Shown here piece by piece: positions 10,031 through 27,962 of a stretch of DNA of 39,866 nucleotides; the first letter of the stretch is position 1; each line of letters opens with the position of its first letter. Origin of the DNA: an uncultured Gammaproteobacteria bacterium (GTDB lineage: Bacteria; Patescibacteriota; Microgenomatia; UBA12405); assembly GCA_964516555.1 (NCBI GenBank), contig CAZFAI010000002.1, positions 1-39,866 on the forward strand, in the 5' to 3' direction. A program made the translations under genes and the position numbers. Under the pieces are notes generated by a model. The model had not been told where the DNA came from and searched no databases. It saw only the letters and a program-made list of their open reading frames with translations.

Positions 10031-11416
10031 ATGAGTAGTAAAGTGTATTTGTATAACACTGCCAAGAGAAAGAAAGAAGAATTTAGGCCTATTGCCGGAA
10101 AAAAGGTGGGTATTTATTCGTGTGGGCCGACCGTTTATTCCAATCAGCATATCGGCAATATGTATGCCTATGTTGTTTGGGATGTGTTTGTAAGATTTTT
10201 GAGGTATGCAGGTTATGAGGTTTTGTGGGTGATGAACATAACTGATGTAGGACATATGACATCAGACCAAGATGAAGGTGAAGATAAGCTGGAAAAAGGA
10301 GCAAAACAAGAAGGGATATCACCCTGGGAGATTGCTAAAAGATATGAAAAACAATTTATGGAAAGCTTGGAGATGCTTAATATCGAAAAACCGGACCATT
10401 TACCCAAAGCTACAGAGCATATAGTAGAGCAGATTGAATTGGCCAAAAAGATCGAAGATCGGGGTTTTGCTTATATGACAAAAACGGGATTAGTTTTCGA
10501 TACCAGTAAATTTGAGAATTATGCTGATTTTGCTAACTTGAAATTGGAAGAAATGGAATCGGGTGCCAGGGTTGAAGTGGACTTGGAAAAAAAGAAACCA
10601 TGGGATTTTTTGTTGTGGGTGATTAATCAACCCGAACACGTAATGAAATGGGAATCACCTTGGGGCGAGGGGTTTCCGGGTTGGCATTTGGAATGTAGTG
10701 CCATGTCGACAAAATATTTAGGAGAAAAATTTGATATTCACACGGGAGGGATAGAACATATCGGAGTCCATCATACTAACGAAATAGCACAAGGATATGG
10801 TGCTTTTGGAAAGGAAACTGCCAACTACTGGCTTCATAACGCCTGGTTGACGTTGAAAGATGAGAAAATGAGTAAATCTCTGGGAAATGTTTATACAGTA
10901 GGACAATTGATGGAAAAGGGATATGATCCATTGGCTTTCAGATATTTAATTTTGACCTCACATTATAGAAAAGGGTTGGTGTTTTCTTTTGAATCTTTGG
11001 AAGCAGCTGGAAGAGCACTAAGCAGATTAAAAAAGTATGTTAGTGAATGGAAGAAACAAGGTTTGGGTGCGGTGAACAAAGATTATAAAAAGATGTTTAT
11101 TGAAGCTGTAGCTGATGATTTTGCCATGCCTGAGGGGATGGCAGTAGTGTGGAAGTTGGTAAAAGATGCTAATTTAAGCGATGGGGATAAACTGGCAACT
11201 TTACTTGATTATGACTTAGTCTTGGGCTTGAGGTTGTCCGAGACGGAAGAGTTGGAGGAAAAAATTCCCGCGGAAATAGAGAGACTAGCGGATGAAAGAC
11301 AAAGAGCCCGGGAGAATAGGGATTGGTCTAAAGCCGATGAGTTAAGAGAGGTGATTTTGAGTAAAGGTTATTTAGTTGAAGATGTAGGTAACGGTAGTGT
11401 AATTCGAAAAAAATAA
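10031..11416 (+). CDS. cysS: Cysteinyl-tRNA synthetase
   Basis: CGPTVYSNQHIGN (HIGH region), KMSKSLGN, WHLEC. Confidence 0.95.
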   Translation: MSSKVYLYNTAKRKKEEFRPIAGKKVGIYSCGPTVYSNQHIGNMYAYVVWDVFVRFLRYAGYEVLWVMNITDVGHMTSDQDEGEDKLEKGAKQEGISPWEIAKRYEKQFMESLEMLNIEKPDHLPKATEHIVEQIELAKKIEDRGFAYMTKTGLVFDTSKFENYADFANLKLEEMESGARVEVDLEKKKPWDFLLWVINQPEHVMKWESPWGEGFPGWHLECSAMSTKYLGEKFDIHTGGIEHIGVHHTNEIAQGYGAFGKETANYWLHNAWLTLKDEKMSKSLGNVYTVGQLMEKGYDPLAFRYLILTSHYRKGLVFSFESLEAAGRALSRLKKYVSEWKKQGLGAVNKDYKKMFIEAVADDFAMPEGMAVVWKLVKDANLSDGDKLATLLDYDLVLGLRLSETEELEEKIPAEIERLADERQRARENRDWSKADELREVILSKGYLVEDVGNGSVIRKK

Positions 11417-11458
11417 AAAATTGTAATACTGAGGATAATATGTTAATCTAGAGCGTTT

Positions 11459-11752
11459 ATGAATGACAAAAATCAATATCAAATAATCTCGGTTTTTAAC
11501 CCAAAAACTGAAGAAAAGGAAAGGGACGAGGTATTAAAAAAAATTACCTCTTGGGTCGAAGAACAGAAAGCAGAGATCAATAATTCAAATCATTGGGGTA
11601 ACAAAGAATTGGCTTATGAGATAAATGATCTAAAAAAGGGTGATTTTTGGATTATGGATGTTGAAAGTGAAAAGCCCTTGGATGTCAGAAATTTTAATGT
11701 ATTTTTAAATAGAGAACCTAAAATTATTCGTTATTTAATTTTGAAAAAGTAA
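11459..11752 (+). CDS. rpsF: 30S ribosomal protein S6
   Basis: Conserved rpsF-ssb-rpsR operon context and the pattern YQIISVFNP...WGNKELAYEI. Confidence 0.85.
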   Translation: MNDKNQYQIISVFNPKTEEKERDEVLKKITSWVEEQKAEINNSNHWGNKELAYEINDLKKGDFWIMDVESEKPLDVRNFNVFLNREPKIIRYLILKK

Positions 11753-11761
11753 GGAGAAAAT

Positions 11762-12319
11762 ATGCCTAGTCGATGTTTAAATCGAGTGATGTTAATTGGT
11801 AATTTAACCCGTGATCCGGAATTGAGGTACACCCCAGGTGGGATGGCGGTGACTTCTTTTGGGTTGGCTACTAATCGGGTGTGGGTAACGAAGCAAGGTG
11901 AGAGAAAAGAAGATGCCCAGTTTCATCGAATAGTTGCCTGGAATAAGTTAGCTGAATTATGTTCCCAATTATTAAGCAAGGGAAGAAGGGTTTTTGTTGA
12001 GGGTAGGATTCAATACAGAGAAATTACTGATCAGCAAGGTGTTCGCAAACAAGTTTCTGAGATCGTTATTGACGATATGGTTATTCTGGATAACAAAGGT
12101 GTTCCGTCCAATGAAGCAAGAGGAGACGTGGATATGGGTGGAAGTGAAGATGTGGCCGTTGCTTCTAATGACAATGGAAAAATTGAAGATATTGTAATTC
12201 CAGATGAAATTATGGATGATGGAGAGACTGAAGTTAAAAGTGAGGCGAGTAGCAATGAAGTTTCTGCAGAACAGCCAGCTTCTACTGACGAAAAGCCAGA
12301 AGAAGAAATGCCCTTCTAA
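11762..12319 (+). CDS. ssb: Single-stranded DNA-binding protein
   Basis: OB-fold NRVMLIGNLTRDPELRYTPGG and an acidic tail ending EEMPF. Confidence 0.9.
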   Translation: MPSRCLNRVMLIGNLTRDPELRYTPGGMAVTSFGLATNRVWVTKQGERKEDAQFHRIVAWNKLAELCSQLLSKGRRVFVEGRIQYREITDQQGVRKQVSEIVIDDMVILDNKGVPSNEARGDVDMGGSEDVAVASNDNGKIEDIVIPDEIMDDGETEVKSEASSNEVSAEQPASTDEKPEEEMPF

Positions 12320-12339
12320 ATTAAATAAAGGAAAAGAAA

Positions 12340-12579
12340 ATGCCAAGACCAAAAAAACCAATGATGATCCAAGTCCGATCAAAAGAATGTCAGTTTTGTA
12401 AGACAGGTACAGTACCCGCCTGGCAGGATTATGATGTTTTGAAGGACTATTTATCCTCAAGAGGTAGGATACTTAGTTCCCATTACACCGGTGTGTGTGT
12501 CAAACATCAAAAGCAGTTAGCTAAAGCTATAAAACAGGCTAGACATTTGGCCTTGATTCCTTTTACGACTCAAGAGTAA
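12340..12579 (+). CDS. rpsR: 30S ribosomal protein S18
   Basis: CQFCK...DYLSSRGRILSSHYTGVCVKHQKQLAKAIKQARHLALIPF. Confidence 0.9.
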   Translation: MPRPKKPMMIQVRSKECQFCKTGTVPAWQDYDVLKDYLSSRGRILSSHYTGVCVKHQKQLAKAIKQARHLALIPFTTQE

Positions 12580-24444: not shown

Positions 24445-25141
24445 ATGGGCCAATATTAAAGAAAGAAAGGGTTCGCAGGATAAAAAAAGAAGCGAGTCTT
24501 TCACCCGGATGGCAAAAAATATTATTACTGCCGTCAGGATTGGAGGCGGAGTGACCAATCCGGAACTTAACACATATTTAAGAAGTGCTATTGATAAGGC
24601 TAAAGAAGTGAACATGCCGAAAGAAAACATACAAAGATTGCTAGATAGTTTTGAGGCCAGAAGGGCACAATTAACAAGCTATATACTCGAAGGCTATGGT
24701 CCTTTTGGGGTGCCTTTGGTGATTGAGACGGAAACGGATAACAAAAACAGAACATTGTCTGAGATCAAGTCATTGTTAAAAACTTATGGCGGAAGCTTGG
24801 GTGAAACTAATTCAGTATTGTATCAATTTGAGAAAAAAGGAGAAGTAGAATTTGATGATGTTAGTGAAGATGACCAATTAATGATGATTGATATTGGGGC
24901 GTTGGATTTTGAGGACAATACTGTAATGGTTGATCCTAATAATACAAAGGACTTTGTGGATAGAGTAGAGAAAGAAGGTAAAAACGTAGTTCGGTCAGAA
25001 GTAGTACTCAGGTCAACTATGCCGGTGGTGTTAAAAAATGAAGCTGAGCTAAACAAAATCATGGACTTGATTGTTGATTTGGAGGAAAATGAAGATGTGA
25101 TTAATGTTTATGCTGGTTTTGATTATGAACAAAAGAATTAA
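24428..25141 (+). CDS. yebC: YebC/PmpR family DNA-binding regulator
   Basis: MSGHSKWANIKERKGSQDKKRS... Confidence 0.9.
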   Translation: MSGHSKWANIKERKGSQDKKRSESFTRMAKNIITAVRIGGGVTNPELNTYLRSAIDKAKEVNMPKENIQRLLDSFEARRAQLTSYILEGYGPFGVPLVIETETDNKNRTLSEIKSLLKTYGGSLGETNSVLYQFEKKGEVEFDDVSEDDQLMMIDIGALDFEDNTVMVDPNNTKDFVDRVEKEGKNVVRSEVVLRSTMPVVLKNEAELNKIMDLIVDLEENEDVINVYAGFDYEQKN

Positions 25142-25910
25142 GTATATCTTATCGTCGTTAGTATCGGCGTTTGGGTTTTTTCTTTTAATTACATTGCCCT
25201 ATGAATCCCATTATTACGGTTTAGCTGCGGGAGCGTTGTTGATAATGGTATGTTTTTGGTTTGGCTTGGGGATAATATTTGACAAGGATTGGTTTAATAA
25301 AATGATGTCGGTTATTTTGCCGGTAAGTTTTTTTATTGGGGCGGGTTTGTTTGTAGCATTGTTACCGCTTGATTTTTTGGGCTCTTTTATTTTGAGCGCA
25401 ATTTTTGGAGTAGTTTGTTATTTTATATTTTTAGTAGAAAACGTGTTTTTGGTAGCAATCGGTTACAAGACGGTACCTCTTTACAGAGCGGCTTATACAG
25501 TAAGTTTAATCATATTACTATTAAGTTCTTTTTTATTGTTTAACAGTATTTATTCTTTTCGATTTAATTATGGAATCAATATGCTGTTGGTTTTTTTGGT
25601 AGCAATATTAGTGTTCTTATATCAATTTTGGGCGATTGCCATAGAATTACCTGATGACGGGAAGGGAAAGAATATTTCAATATACGTATTAGTACCTTCA
25701 CTTTTAATTACTCAGTTGGCACTAGTGTTTTCATTTTGGCCGGTTGGTATATTTAAGGGGTCAATTTATTTGGTTTCAGCGATATATGTATTAAGTGGAC
25801 TGCTACAAGCAGATATTAGAGAAAGGCTATTTAAGAGGACTTGGTTATCCAGTATTTGGGTGGGCGTGGCAATCTTGTTGGGAATAGTAATGATGACAGG
25901 TTGGAAATAA
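25104..25910 (+). CDS. Polytopic membrane protein, unknown function
   Basis: About 7-8 hydrophobic helices. The start is ambiguous (ATG 25104, 25110 or 25125). Confidence 0.55.
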   Translation: MFMLVLIMNKRIKYILSSLVSAFGFFLLITLPYESHYYGLAAGALLIMVCFWFGLGIIFDKDWFNKMMSVILPVSFFIGAGLFVALLPLDFLGSFILSAIFGVVCYFIFLVENVFLVAIGYKTVPLYRAAYTVSLIILLLSSFLLFNSIYSFRFNYGINMLLVFLVAILVFLYQFWAIAIELPDDGKGKNISIYVLVPSLLITQLALVFSFWPVGIFKGSIYLVSAIYVLSGLLQADIRERLFKRTWLSSIWVGVAILLGIVMMTGWK

Positions 25911-25945
25911 AAATATACCTAAGGATAGGCTAAATATTAATTATT

Positions 25946-26422
25946 GGTAGGGGAGAGTGGGTAAGGCTTTCCCCAGTTTTAGCTAGTTGTCTGACAATTT
26001 AAAAAGTAGTTAGTTTGGATTTGGCTGGTGTTAATAGAAGCAGAGGCTAATTCAAATTCGGTAAAAATTAGCAGTCGTGGAGGTAGAGTGGGGAAGTGGC
26101 CTATAATATTATTAACCTATAATATATTATTTTCACACTAATAGTAATAATTTTCACAAATATATTGATATACAATGATATAGTTTGTGTGGAAAACTAT
26201 AAATAACGCGAATATATCAAGAGAGTGCTTGATTGTAACCAGAGTAGAGGTGGAGTTATAAGGAAATAAGCAAGCAATTAATTAATTATTGATAAATATT
26301 GTATGGATAATGAAGGAGAATAATTATAGTATCCCCGAGTGGTAGGAGAGCTCTTTTAAGAAGTCGCACAATGTATGTTTTACGACTATAAAGCCGTGAT
26401 AAGGGAGGGGAGGTGCGATTGG
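25946..26422 (+). repeat. Irregular array of five degenerate purine-rich motifs (GGTAG-R-AG-GTGGG-AAGG-like)
   Basis: Copies at 25946-25966, 26079-26099, 26239-26263, 26336-26351 and 26398-26422. They are GC-rich islands in AT-rich noncoding DNA. Confidence 0.4.
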
Positions 26423-26711
26423 TTAATTTTTATAATTATTTAAAAATTTTGTTTTTTATTTCTTTAAAATAAAAGTATCGATATTTTATTTTGATCATTT
26501 TGTCCTCCGACGACGGCTTACTACTTATTTTTTGTCTAGCCTTAAATTTGATTATTGACTCCCCTTTAGGTAAATTTCGGAGAGTGAGTATAAAATAAGC
26601 CTAAAAATAGGTAAAATAAGGCTAAGACGTCACCAGAGCCCCTGTAACAAAAGATTTTTAAAATCATGATAACTAATTCGTTAATATTTCGAAATAGTGT
26701 TAAGATTTATT

Positions 26712-27650
26712 ATGGAAAGAGACTTGAGGGTTATGGTTAGAAGATTTTTAGAATATTTAGAGGTGGAGCGTAATTGTTCAAAGTTAACTATCAGAAACTA
26801 CAATCATTATCTACAAGTACTGATAGATTTTCTGTCTGACAAAAAAGAAACCTTAACTGTAAGTGACATTAACTCCGAGACGGTGAGAAGTTTCCGATTA
26901 TATCTGAGTCGACAAAAAGGTGTGAAGGGTGAAATGAAATCTGTAACTCAGGGTTACTATGTTATTGCACTCAGATCGTTTTTAAAGTGGTTGGTAAAAA
27001 ATGATTATGAAGTACTACAGCCGGAAAAATTGGAAGTTCCAAAAAACAAAGACCACTCGTTGAAATTTCTGGATGACCATCAGATTGAAAGGCTGTTAGC
27101 TCAGCCATTGTCGTCAACAATAAATGGATTGCGGGATAAGGTAATACTAGAGTTGCTTTTTTCTACGGGTTTGAGGGTTTCGGAGTTGGTTTCCCTTAAC
27201 CGGGATAAAGTAAATTTAACTACCAGGGAATTTGGTGTTATCGGTAAGGGTGGACGTTCCCGGGTGGTGTTTATTTCAAAACGAGCGGCTGAATTTTTGG
27301 ATAAATATTTGAAAAACAGGCGGGATCATTTTAATCCATTGTTTATCAGATATTCAGGTAAAAAGGATGTAGCGATGAGTGATGAGAACGTCAGATTGAC
27401 AGCAAGATCAATACAGCGGATGGTTAAAAAATATGTAAGGCAGGCTCGCCTACCGGTTGAAGCTACACCACACACACTTAGACATTCTATGGCTACTGAT
27501 TTGCTTCGGGCTGGAGCAGACTTGAGATCTGTTCAGGAAATTCTTGGACACAAAAATATTGCTACCACTCAAATTTATACACATGTTACGGATGCTAGAC
27601 TGAGAGAGGTTCATGAGAGGTACCATAAGGGTAACAATGAAAATAAATAG
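26712..27650 (+). CDS. xerC: XerC/XerD-type tyrosine recombinase
   Basis: N-terminal FLEYLEVERNCSKLTIRNYNHYL. Catalytic region GLRVSEL...HTLRHSMATDLLRAGADLRSVQEILGHKNIATTQIYTHV. ATG 26712 is preferred over GTG 26697. Confidence 0.9.
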   Translation: MERDLRVMVRRFLEYLEVERNCSKLTIRNYNHYLQVLIDFLSDKKETLTVSDINSETVRSFRLYLSRQKGVKGEMKSVTQGYYVIALRSFLKWLVKNDYEVLQPEKLEVPKNKDHSLKFLDDHQIERLLAQPLSSTINGLRDKVILELLFSTGLRVSELVSLNRDKVNLTTREFGVIGKGGRSRVVFISKRAAEFLDKYLKNRRDHFNPLFIRYSGKKDVAMSDENVRLTARSIQRMVKKYVRQARLPVEATPHTLRHSMATDLLRAGADLRSVQEILGHKNIATTQIYTHVTDARLREVHERYHKGNNENK

Positions 27651-27962
27651 TTTTTCTTATCCTTATAGTTGCACATATTGCGGATACTATTGAGATAAGC
27701 TAATAATTAGATGTGTATGTGATATTTAAGTATTGTTATTGCCGTAACTTAGGCCTAAATATAATATTCGTACTCAGTTGGCACTCCCCTGCTAAGTTTG
27801 CTAATATCCCCTACCCTATAATTATAGACCCATAATGTGTCATTTTTGAAGTTGCAGATAAACTGATGACAAATAATTTGCCTAAAATAGTGAGTATTAA
27901 TACCTAATATCCTATAAAATACGCAGCAAAGATCCTATAATAGATGACTCCCCTACCCTGGT

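Follow-up and report, generated by a model that had tools for sequence, protein, structure and literature searches.

The largest intergenic gap in the 39,866-nucleotide stretch of contig CAZFAI010000002.1 analysed here (39.9 kb; hereafter the window) lies immediately upstream of a gene encoding an Xer-family tyrosine recombinase. Our analysis indicates that this gap is probably the cis-acting part of a single-recombinase xer-dif module from the Candidate Phyla Radiation (CPR), with an unusual accessory region that contains a DnaA box. The gap, which is free of open reading frames (ORFs), spans positions 25911-26696 (786 bp), while the next-largest intergenic gaps of the window measure at most 345 bp. 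Its A+T content is 68.8%, compared with 60.9% for the window, and the only ORFs inside it encode 33-37 amino acids (aa). The initial annotation of this DNA, which had described its largest gap as AT-rich and devoid of ORFs, was accurate in these respects, and all the motif coordinates that it quoted were verified in the sequence.

The central element of the proposed module is a dif-like core at 26363-26386, in which two inverted arms of 9 bp, GTCGCACAA on the left (26363-26371) and TTTTACGAC on the right (26378-26386), enclose a 6-bp centre, TGTATG (26372-26377). This element, which the initial annotation did not list, is the best-conserved block of the gap, and with two flanking bases on each side it takes an 11-6-11 layout in which 7 of the 11 arm positions are symmetric. 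We retrieved 50 genomic loci with the window recombinase (here and below, loci bear L numbers), the closest of which belong to Candidatus Shapirobacteria and other Microgenomates within the CPR (Patescibacteria). The core is present exactly once in 37 of these 50 loci, always in an intergenic position upstream of the Xer gene, at a distance of 250-1150 bp (311 bp in the window). It likewise occurs once in the window, the single-copy count covering the 39.9 kb of the window and related loci of 5-21 kb.

Conserved arms were found in Microgenomates, in WWE3-like lineages and in other CPR members, with recombinase identity among the core-linked loci descending to about 46%. As a consensus the block reads GTCGCACAA, TGTATC and TTTTRCGAC, the window differing in its centre, and the arm consensus across lineages is GTCGYAMAA / TTTWRCGAC. 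The central 6 bp, by contrast, vary with lineage (TGTATC, TAATAC, TATACC, CATACA and others). Fixed arms around a changing centre are expected for the core site of a tyrosine recombinase, an enzyme that recognises the arms while the strand exchange itself spans the centre. In addition, the symmetric arm positions 5 and 20 display C/A, C/G, T/G and T/A combinations, the pattern of two half-sites contacted by protein rather than of a hairpin. Conservation of the core next to a recombinase gene is best explained by an Xer core site, and the arm-spacer architecture together with this adjacency most likely identifies the element as the dif-like site of a xer-dif module.

The recombinase gene (26697-27650, + strand) encodes 317 aa from its first GTG, although gene callers place the start 12 codons later, and its product contains the Pfam Phage_integrase and SAM-like N domains. 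The catalytic residues R-K-H-R-H-Y do not vary among 12 diverse homologues, and by its sequence the protein is an Xer-family recombinase with a complete catalytic set. Against the NCBIfam models it scored 250.9 bits for XerC and 243.5 bits for XerD, both below the equivalog cut-offs, and 227.8 bits for XerA_Arch, which exceeds the cut-off of 220. The XerS model gave 126.8 bits, with a cut-off of 267, and the XerH structure (PDB 5jjv) was matched in its C-terminal part only (E 2e-10), so that the protein was assigned to neither the XerS nor the XerH orthologues; its best PDB match is XerD (1a0p). The near-equal XerC and XerD scores and the near-symmetric arms are only suggestive of one recombinase per genome, the analysis having covered approximately 60 kb of this one. 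At the positions of the XerD residues that contact FtsK-gamma (E119, Q123, I127, E184, Y187 and W188; PMC5052618), the window protein has E, A, S, R, E and F. These contacts are mostly not conserved, which makes an XerD-like interaction with FtsK doubtful and would fit a site that does not need a polarity switch.

In the mechanism that we propose, a recombinase monomer would bind each 9-bp arm of the core, cleave the DNA and exchange strands across the 6-bp central region, and recombination between the two copies of the site on a chromosome dimer would restore monomers, with the unlinking of sister chromosomes as a possible added role. The approximately 300 bp upstream of the core, comprising lineage-specific repeats, the TGATATAG motif and the DnaA box, would constitute accessory or regulatory DNA that may bind further proteins, DnaA among them. 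The G-run/C-run inverted repeats on the flanks of the core, which bound a 150-bp AT-rich spacer, might provide more protein sites or structural elements in the Shapirobacteria-type clade only.

Comparison of the relatives, whose ORF-free gaps measure 560-900 bp, by BLASTN and MAFFT revealed conserved blocks with unalignable DNA in between. Among the motifs reported initially, the DnaA-box-like sequence at 26188-26196 and the purine-rich motifs near 26079 and 26403 fall in blocks conserved alongside the core; others, such as 26302-26310, do not. The DnaA box at 26188-26196, TTTTCCACA, lies on the - strand and matches the consensus at 8 of 9 positions (the + strand reads TGTGGAAAA, of the TGTGGAWAA type). 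It recurs in 34 of 38 loci, including lineages whose flanks are unalignable, with its orientation unchanged and at a distance of 143-286 bp (mostly about 175 bp) on the upstream side of the core, and in 21 of those loci it is a perfect TGTGGATAA box. The significance of this box stems from its conserved place and orientation and not from counts. The two 8/9 matches had been located correctly, but about 0.5 are expected per gap at the window rate, a rate set by 26 such 9-mers in the window (23 of them on the - strand) compared with 13.8 +/- 3.9 in shuffles, and their number is not above chance. The second match, TTATCCATA (26302-26310, - strand), was found in the window only and is probably a chance occurrence. 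Elsewhere in the window, five DnaA-box-like 9-mers with at most one mismatch lie within 1.3 kb at 11182-12459, around a 71% A+T gap (11417-11761) upstream of ssb.

Directly 5' of the conserved DnaA box, the interval 26100-26187 is 83% A+T and holds an array of short direct repeats on the + strand (26100-26158). Two copies of CCTATAAT (at 26100 and 26116; period 16 and score 51 in Tandem Repeats Finder) had escaped the initial annotation, while the two short repeats that it placed at about 26130 and 26151 were identified as TTTTCACA (26130-26137 and 26151-26158; spacing 21). At the same position, relatives carry CCTATAAT in two or three copies and TTTTCACG in two, at spacings of 15-30 bp, and the group formed by L030-L032 and L037 has three to five copies of TTGTCATA spaced 23-25 bp apart, again upstream of the box. 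The direct repeats are lineage-specific, TTTTCACR and CCTATAAT being the Microgenomates type, and they resemble a core arm in Microgenomates only (TTTTCACGA compared with TTTTACGAC) and not in other lineages; a role as extra Xer half-sites is plausible for Microgenomates only. Between the array and the box lies TGATATA-caa-TGATATAG (26166-26183, + strand), whose TGATATAGTTTGAT portion is conserved across Microgenomates and has an inverted partner, ATATATCA, at 26212-26219. TGATATAGTTTGAT resembles an extended -10 element (TGnTATAgT), its end being 5 nt from the start of the DnaA box, and may act as a promoter.

The purine-rich block GGAGGTAGAGTGGGGAAGTGG (26079-26099, + strand) is situated just upstream of the repeat array and is G/A-rich in all Shapirobacteria-type loci. 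It is one of five purine-rich motifs that had been proposed as a degenerate array; their coordinates are right, but they do not form one repeat family, and only those near 26079 and 26403 hold conserved positions. The motif at 25946 supplies the 5' side of a hairpin (25950-25974, + strand, followed by AGTTTT) that looks like a terminator, belongs to the upstream 268-aa membrane-protein gene, lies outside the module and is missing in relatives with shorter gaps. GGGGA and TCCCC are enriched in the gap, with 3+3 copies compared with 0.9+0.3 expected at the window rate.

The mosaic of conserved and variable DNA bears on the two alternatives that the initial annotation had kept, a mobile element in decay and a non-coding RNA that is long and structured, both of which we regard as extremely unlikely. 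The - strand folds better than its shuffles (z -5.8, from 20 shuffles only), an effect that we attribute to the inverted repeats in the DNA, whereas the + strand gives z -1.1. No Rfam match was obtained for the gap at gathering thresholds in the window, nor at E<=10 in a search of 25700-26900 on both strands. RNAalifold applied to 17 relatives returned 11 pairs (-7.4 kcal/mol, covariation +0.08), all of them from the core palindrome and one 3-bp stem, and the conserved blocks are split by length-variable, unalignable DNA and change their order between lineages. Neither an Rfam family nor a conserved, covarying structure therefore sustains the RNA alternative, and the stable position and synteny of the locus in the relatives argue against a decayed mobile element. 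A coding function was also rejected: there is no conserved ORF, the indels in the alignment are not multiples of three, and the best block is 100% identical and not protein-like.

Loci of the Shapirobacteria type share an additional set of inverted repeats around the core. On the left flank (26332-26350, + strand), TCCCC (26332-26336) and GGTAGGAGAG (26341-26350) form a pyrimidine run that mirrors the GGGGAG of the right flank, and a run of the CTCCCC/TTCCCT type occurs at about -30 from the core in all Shapirobacteria-type loci. The right-flank G-run, GGGAGGGGAG (26403-26412, + strand), is the inverted partner both of the TCCCC at 26332 and of a CTCCCC at 26559; all 21 of the 21 Shapirobacteria-type loci have its GGGGA at +21/+22 relative to the core, and none of the other lineages has it. 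The C-run that contains this CTCCCC, TTGACTCCCC (26555-26564, + strand), is the inverted partner of GGGGAG; 20 of these 21 loci have it between +174 and +184, counted from the core. The bases flanking the G-run and the C-run co-vary (GGGAAGTGG/CCACTTCCC, CGGGGGAG/CTCCCCCG). Between them, the AT-rich spacer (26415-26555) has a near-constant length of about 150 bp, and its composition and length are conserved while its sequence is not. Within the spacer, the reported A/T tract stands at 91% A+T (26423-26500), 230 bp from the DnaA box and on the far side of the core; the GATC noted in it is unremarkable (one, at 26493, compared with 1.8 expected). Should an origin be present, 26415-26555 would be a candidate unwinding element. 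In Thermococcales, inverted repeats flanking dif have been proposed to bind a partner (PMC2958812).

The inverted pair, which keeps its spacing, co-varies in its flanks and neighbours a tyrosine recombinase gene, also recalls an invertible switch of the fimS type, in which the recombinase would invert the AT-rich segment of about 150 bp between GGGGAG (26407) and CTCCCC (26559). The protein does give NCBIfam matches to tyrosine-type DNA invertases, but these are weak (52-55 bits) and far under the 228-251 bits of the Xer models. Moreover, the inverted repeats are 6-9 bp long without recognisable recombinase arms, and the pair is confined to one clade whereas the core and the recombinase are distributed far more widely. 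Both orientations were not seen among the relatives, though the spacer is too variable for this to be judged. We therefore consider such a switch very unlikely.

A purely regulatory region, with no recombination taking place in it, is in our assessment unlikely. The palindrome would then be the operator of a dimeric regulator or of an Xer autorepressor, and the repeats, the TATAAT-like motifs and the DnaA box would be promoters or operators. Conserved arms with a free 6-bp spacer fit an operator too, CCTATAAT holds a perfect -10 hexamer, TGATATAGT resembles an extended -10 element with the DnaA box over the predicted start, and the core has no significant likeness to known dif sequences. However, the linkage between the site and the Xer gene persists across very deep divergence, as is the hallmark of XerS and XerH modules, and a terminus-type switch of strand composition coincides with the site in locus L031 (see below). 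A promoter-like region with a conserved leader also lies nearer to xer (26590-26642), so the distal 450 bp are not needed for xer expression. The leader block, GACGTCACCAGAGCCCC (26626-26642, + strand), is seen in the alignment, is preceded by TAAAAT-like -10 candidates, and probably represents the proximal xer promoter and mRNA leader.

The replicative position of the site was evaluated from skew at third codon positions. In L031, a relative with ordinary, weak skew, the + strand skew is +0.44, +0.19 and +0.40 in the genes to the left of the gap and -0.19 (xer), -0.30 and -0.12 to the right, so that the sign switch, from + to - and thus of the terminus type, falls exactly at the gap. Since the negative side includes xer, which is on the + strand, the switch cannot be put down to gene orientation. 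The maximum of cumulative skew falls 36 bp from the core in L066 and 179 bp from it in L075; in both, all genes are on the + strand to the left and on the - strand beyond xer, so skew is partly confounded with orientation. L032, L037 and L055 also lean towards the terminus type, with signals that are weak or confounded by orientation. Taken with the nature of the core, these positions suggest that the module probably marks the ancestral replication terminus. KOPS-like polar words flipping at the core were considered and discarded, as the words that flip (AAAGAA, AGGGGA and similar) just follow gene orientation.

The window itself behaves differently. Its base composition is 24.6% G, 14.5% C, 30.4% A and 30.5% T (skew 0.26), and the third-position skew of the + strand is 0.45 for left + genes, 0.45 for left - genes, 0.44 for right + genes and 0.40 for right - genes, with values of 0.37-0.65 at four-fold sites. 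Skew was followed along the window's own 74.5-kb contig (L051, L133) to a window-equivalent position of 59.2 kb; over this extent, third-position skew is +0.4 to +0.6 to either side of the gap, with values of +0.2 to +0.75 in genes of both orientations. Every Shapirobacteria-type locus likewise keeps its sign from the left of the gap to the right. The near-complete genome represented by L136 and L134 (JGI Ga0395526_000001, 1,117,440 bp) carries the full module 35 kb from the contig start, with core, DnaA box, repeats and G-run/C-run pair and a longer core-to-xer distance of 667 bp; its skew, sampled at 26-76 kb, is of the same sign throughout and weaker (overall about 0.1). Very strong same-sign skew was also observed on other metagenomic contigs, namely L082 (20.9 kb), L074 and L070, whose third-position values over 14-21 kb are -0.6, -0.3 and +0.35. 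The C-rich strand carries the Xer homologue in L082 and L074, and the DNA upstream of this homologue yielded no core of the present type.

Several observations weigh against interpreting the gap as a xer-dif module. In the window's own genome, skew remains positive from 26 kb to the left of the site to 33 kb to its right (59 kb) with no inversion, which departs from a canonical dif unless the genome is one without any inversion, and clean terminus-type skew is seen in one lineage only, L031, being weak or confounded elsewhere. The core is identical to E. coli dif at 15 of 28 positions including CGCA.AATGTAT, a value no higher than that of 194 other 28-mers of the window; likeness to the E. coli and B. 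subtilis sites (14-16 of 28) is at chance level and was not used as evidence. A dimeric regulator could also have such a palindrome with a free spacer as its operator, and the xer-dif reading leaves the DnaA box at a dif site without explanation.

The initial annotation had inferred a replication origin from the repeated motifs next to an unwinding-prone tract. In the form of a conventional bidirectional chromosomal oriC, this is almost certainly wrong, although an AT-rich gap with DnaA-box-like 9-mers and repeats is what first invites it. The cumulative skew that had been put forward as a check and the codon-position skews show no oriC-type switch at the gap over 59 kb: third-position skew does not change sign in any gene group (0.40-0.45), and no cumulative minimum (- to +) was found at the site, an absence that is uninformative if skew is monotonic across the genome. 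Genes converge on the locus instead of diverging from it, and relatives with ordinary skew have the opposite switch here, of the terminus type. DnaA boxes do not cluster above chance, one being conserved, the TTTTCACR repeats are three mismatches from TTATCCACA, and no DnaA-trio pattern was recognised by eye. As had been stated initially, neither dnaA nor dnaN is nearby, from -26 to +33 kb; dnaA was not found by Pfam on the window ORFs, in the Pfam annotation of the contig extension or in a crude signature scan of 132 loci. An iteron-type plasmid or chromid origin was also rejected, the repeats being 8-9 bp long, too short for iterons of 17-22 bp, in 2-5 copies and spaced 15-30 bp apart, next to DUF5656 and Xer genes and with no Rep.

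An origin located together with the terminus is, on the other hand, a possibility that we retain, with a probability well below that of the xer-dif module by itself. Under this extension of the favoured reading, a Shapirobacteria-type chromosome would be replicated essentially in one direction, and its origin and terminus would abut in the gap. A DnaA-dependent origin, composed of the DnaA box, the repeats and an unwinding tract at 26100-26187 or 26415-26555, would be added to the dif core, having arisen at, or moved to, an ancestral terminus that already carried the DnaA box. In a genome with monotonic skew, a missing inversion says nothing, so the idea of an origin survives and is kept alive by the DnaA box, the repeats and the AT-rich tracts. 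The consensus-type DnaA box is conserved and has an AT-rich repeat array on its 5' side; the same relative order, an AT-rich element and then a DnaA box, is found in the arrangement of the DNA unwinding element and box R1 of E. coli. The AT-rich element of 150 bp bounded by inverted repeats is present in the Shapirobacteria-type clade only, and a small repeat array of the kind held in the gap is typical of CPR origins (PMC7111523).

Strand composition provides a link to unidirectional replication. The closed Microgenomates genomes of Ch65 (Candidatus Chazhemtobacterium), a Collierbacteria and a Beckwithbacteria share the G/C disparity of the window, one strand of Ch65 having 15% G, 30% C and about as much A as T, and their cumulative GC skew is monotonic; Kadnikov et al. 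(2020) proposed either a short distance between origin and terminus or unidirectional theta replication, and located neither origin nor terminus (PMC7143001). The window shows this same phenotype, and along 59 kb, as in each Shapirobacteria-type locus, its skew passes the ancestral terminus marker without changing sign. Provided that the skew is replicative and that the terminus is where dif lies, the origin must adjoin dif. A precedent exists in the unidirectionally replicating chromids of Pseudoalteromonas, where dif2 lies 4-27 kb from ori2 (PMC7858055). Against a shared origin and terminus, a single DnaA box is conserved, the TTTTCACR repeats are three mismatches from consensus, and both box and repeats are also found in terminus lineages with ordinary skew (L031, L032, L037); being present at a plain terminus (L031), they are not origin-specific. 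The fork would meet the right-hand genes (gyrA, gyrB and nine more) head-on, dnaA is not within -26/+33 kb, genome-wide monotonic skew is known for other Microgenomates only, and the clade-specific element amounts to a single phylogenetic event.

The gene neighbourhood of the module is itself conserved. Upstream, the 268-aa membrane-protein gene (25104-25910, + strand) has no Pfam match, although its orthologue in L136 is annotated DUF5656; beyond the recombinase gene, gyrA and gyrB lie on the - strand. The order YebC, membrane protein, gap, recombinase and gyrA (- strand) is kept in almost all CPR loci, and the xer-gyrA-gyrB linkage in most relatives. More broadly, the neighbourhood (window 7029-32564 plus L051 12001-15804) is dense in replication genes, comprising dnaX, recR, ssb, dnaB, xer, gyrA, gyrB, ligA and a holB-like gene. 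The convergent intergenic region between xer and gyrA (27651-27962; 312 bp, 67% A+T) was covered by the promoter and terminator scan. Several independent assemblies end within the gap, at a few hundred bp from the core or from xer on the upstream side (L001 at a contig start, L013 at a contig end, and L030, L028 and L038), for which repeats, AT-richness or a discontinuity in coverage could be responsible. A Shine-Dalgarno sequence was not recognisable before most starts of the 42 window ORFs, and the interpretation of the gap G-runs as Shine-Dalgarno sites was rejected because most window genes have none.

These results make the locus a concrete and widely conserved candidate dif, together with its recombinase, for the CPR; our full-text searches of a paper collection, which touched on dif sites and replication origins of CPR/Patescibacteria, found no paper that locates either. 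We know of no other dif-type site with lineage-specific repeats and a consensus DnaA box placed at a fixed distance, an association hinting that the initiator protein may be connected with the terminus or the region of dimer resolution. If origin and terminus do meet here, the gap would locate what Kadnikov et al. (2020) only hypothesised and would explain the genome-wide G/C strand disparity; in either case, the puzzle of G-rich and C-rich strands in some Microgenomates becomes testable at this gap. More speculatively, the conserved xer-gyrA-gyrB linkage would fit Xer-assisted unlinking in organisms that possibly lack topoisomerase IV, a role reportedly discussed for H. pylori.

Compared with known systems, the module shares with the XerCD/dif systems of E. 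coli and B. subtilis a site of the 28-bp class with two arms and a 6-bp centre and an Xer-family enzyme. It differs in that its arms are near-symmetrical, which suggests one recombinase, its gene adjoins the site, and its protein falls below both the XerC and the XerD equivalog cut-offs. The crenarchaeal dif lies close to xerA (PMC2958812). Archaeal XerA/dif systems resemble the window in their inverted arms with a 6-bp spacer, in the flanking inverted repeats of the Thermococcales site, in the XerA cut-off that the window protein passes and in the XerD-type FtsK-gamma contacts, which it mostly does not keep. The differences are the bacterial (CPR) host, unrelated arm sequences and the presence of a DnaA box; to our knowledge, archaea have no DnaA.

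The Ch65-type Microgenomates have the same strand composition, with neither ori nor dif located (PMC7143001); unidirectional replication is a proposal for them and hypothetical for the window genome. The Pseudoalteromonas chromids have a plasmid-type (RepA) origin separated from dif by kilobases, whereas the candidate origin signals of the window share one 800-bp gap. In ColE1 cer, pSC101 psi and the IRS/TnpI system of Tn4430, a core is accompanied by about 200 bp of one-sided DNA with repeated protein-binding motifs, and by this comparison the upstream DNA of the window could act as a topological filter favouring resolution. Sites for ArgR, PepA and ArcA are not evident in its accessory region.

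The closest parallels are the single-recombinase systems XerS/difSL and XerH/difH, whose hallmark is a recombination site adjoining the recombinase gene (PMC5357621). As in these systems, one Xer gene adjoins its own imperfect-palindrome site in non-coding DNA, the linkage is conserved (37 of 50 loci, in several CPR lineages), and a terminus-type skew switch accompanies the site in at least one relative (L031). The window protein is nevertheless nearer to XerC, XerD and XerA (228-251 bits) than to XerS (127 bits) or XerH, and the centre of difSL has 11 bp compared with 6 bp in the window core. Window-type cores are also separated from the gene by 250-1150 bp and have a repeat array and a conserved DnaA box on their upstream side, and in the window clade the site is at no skew inversion. 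By this analogy, the module of the window would resemble the XerS and XerH modules in its working while being a member of neither family.

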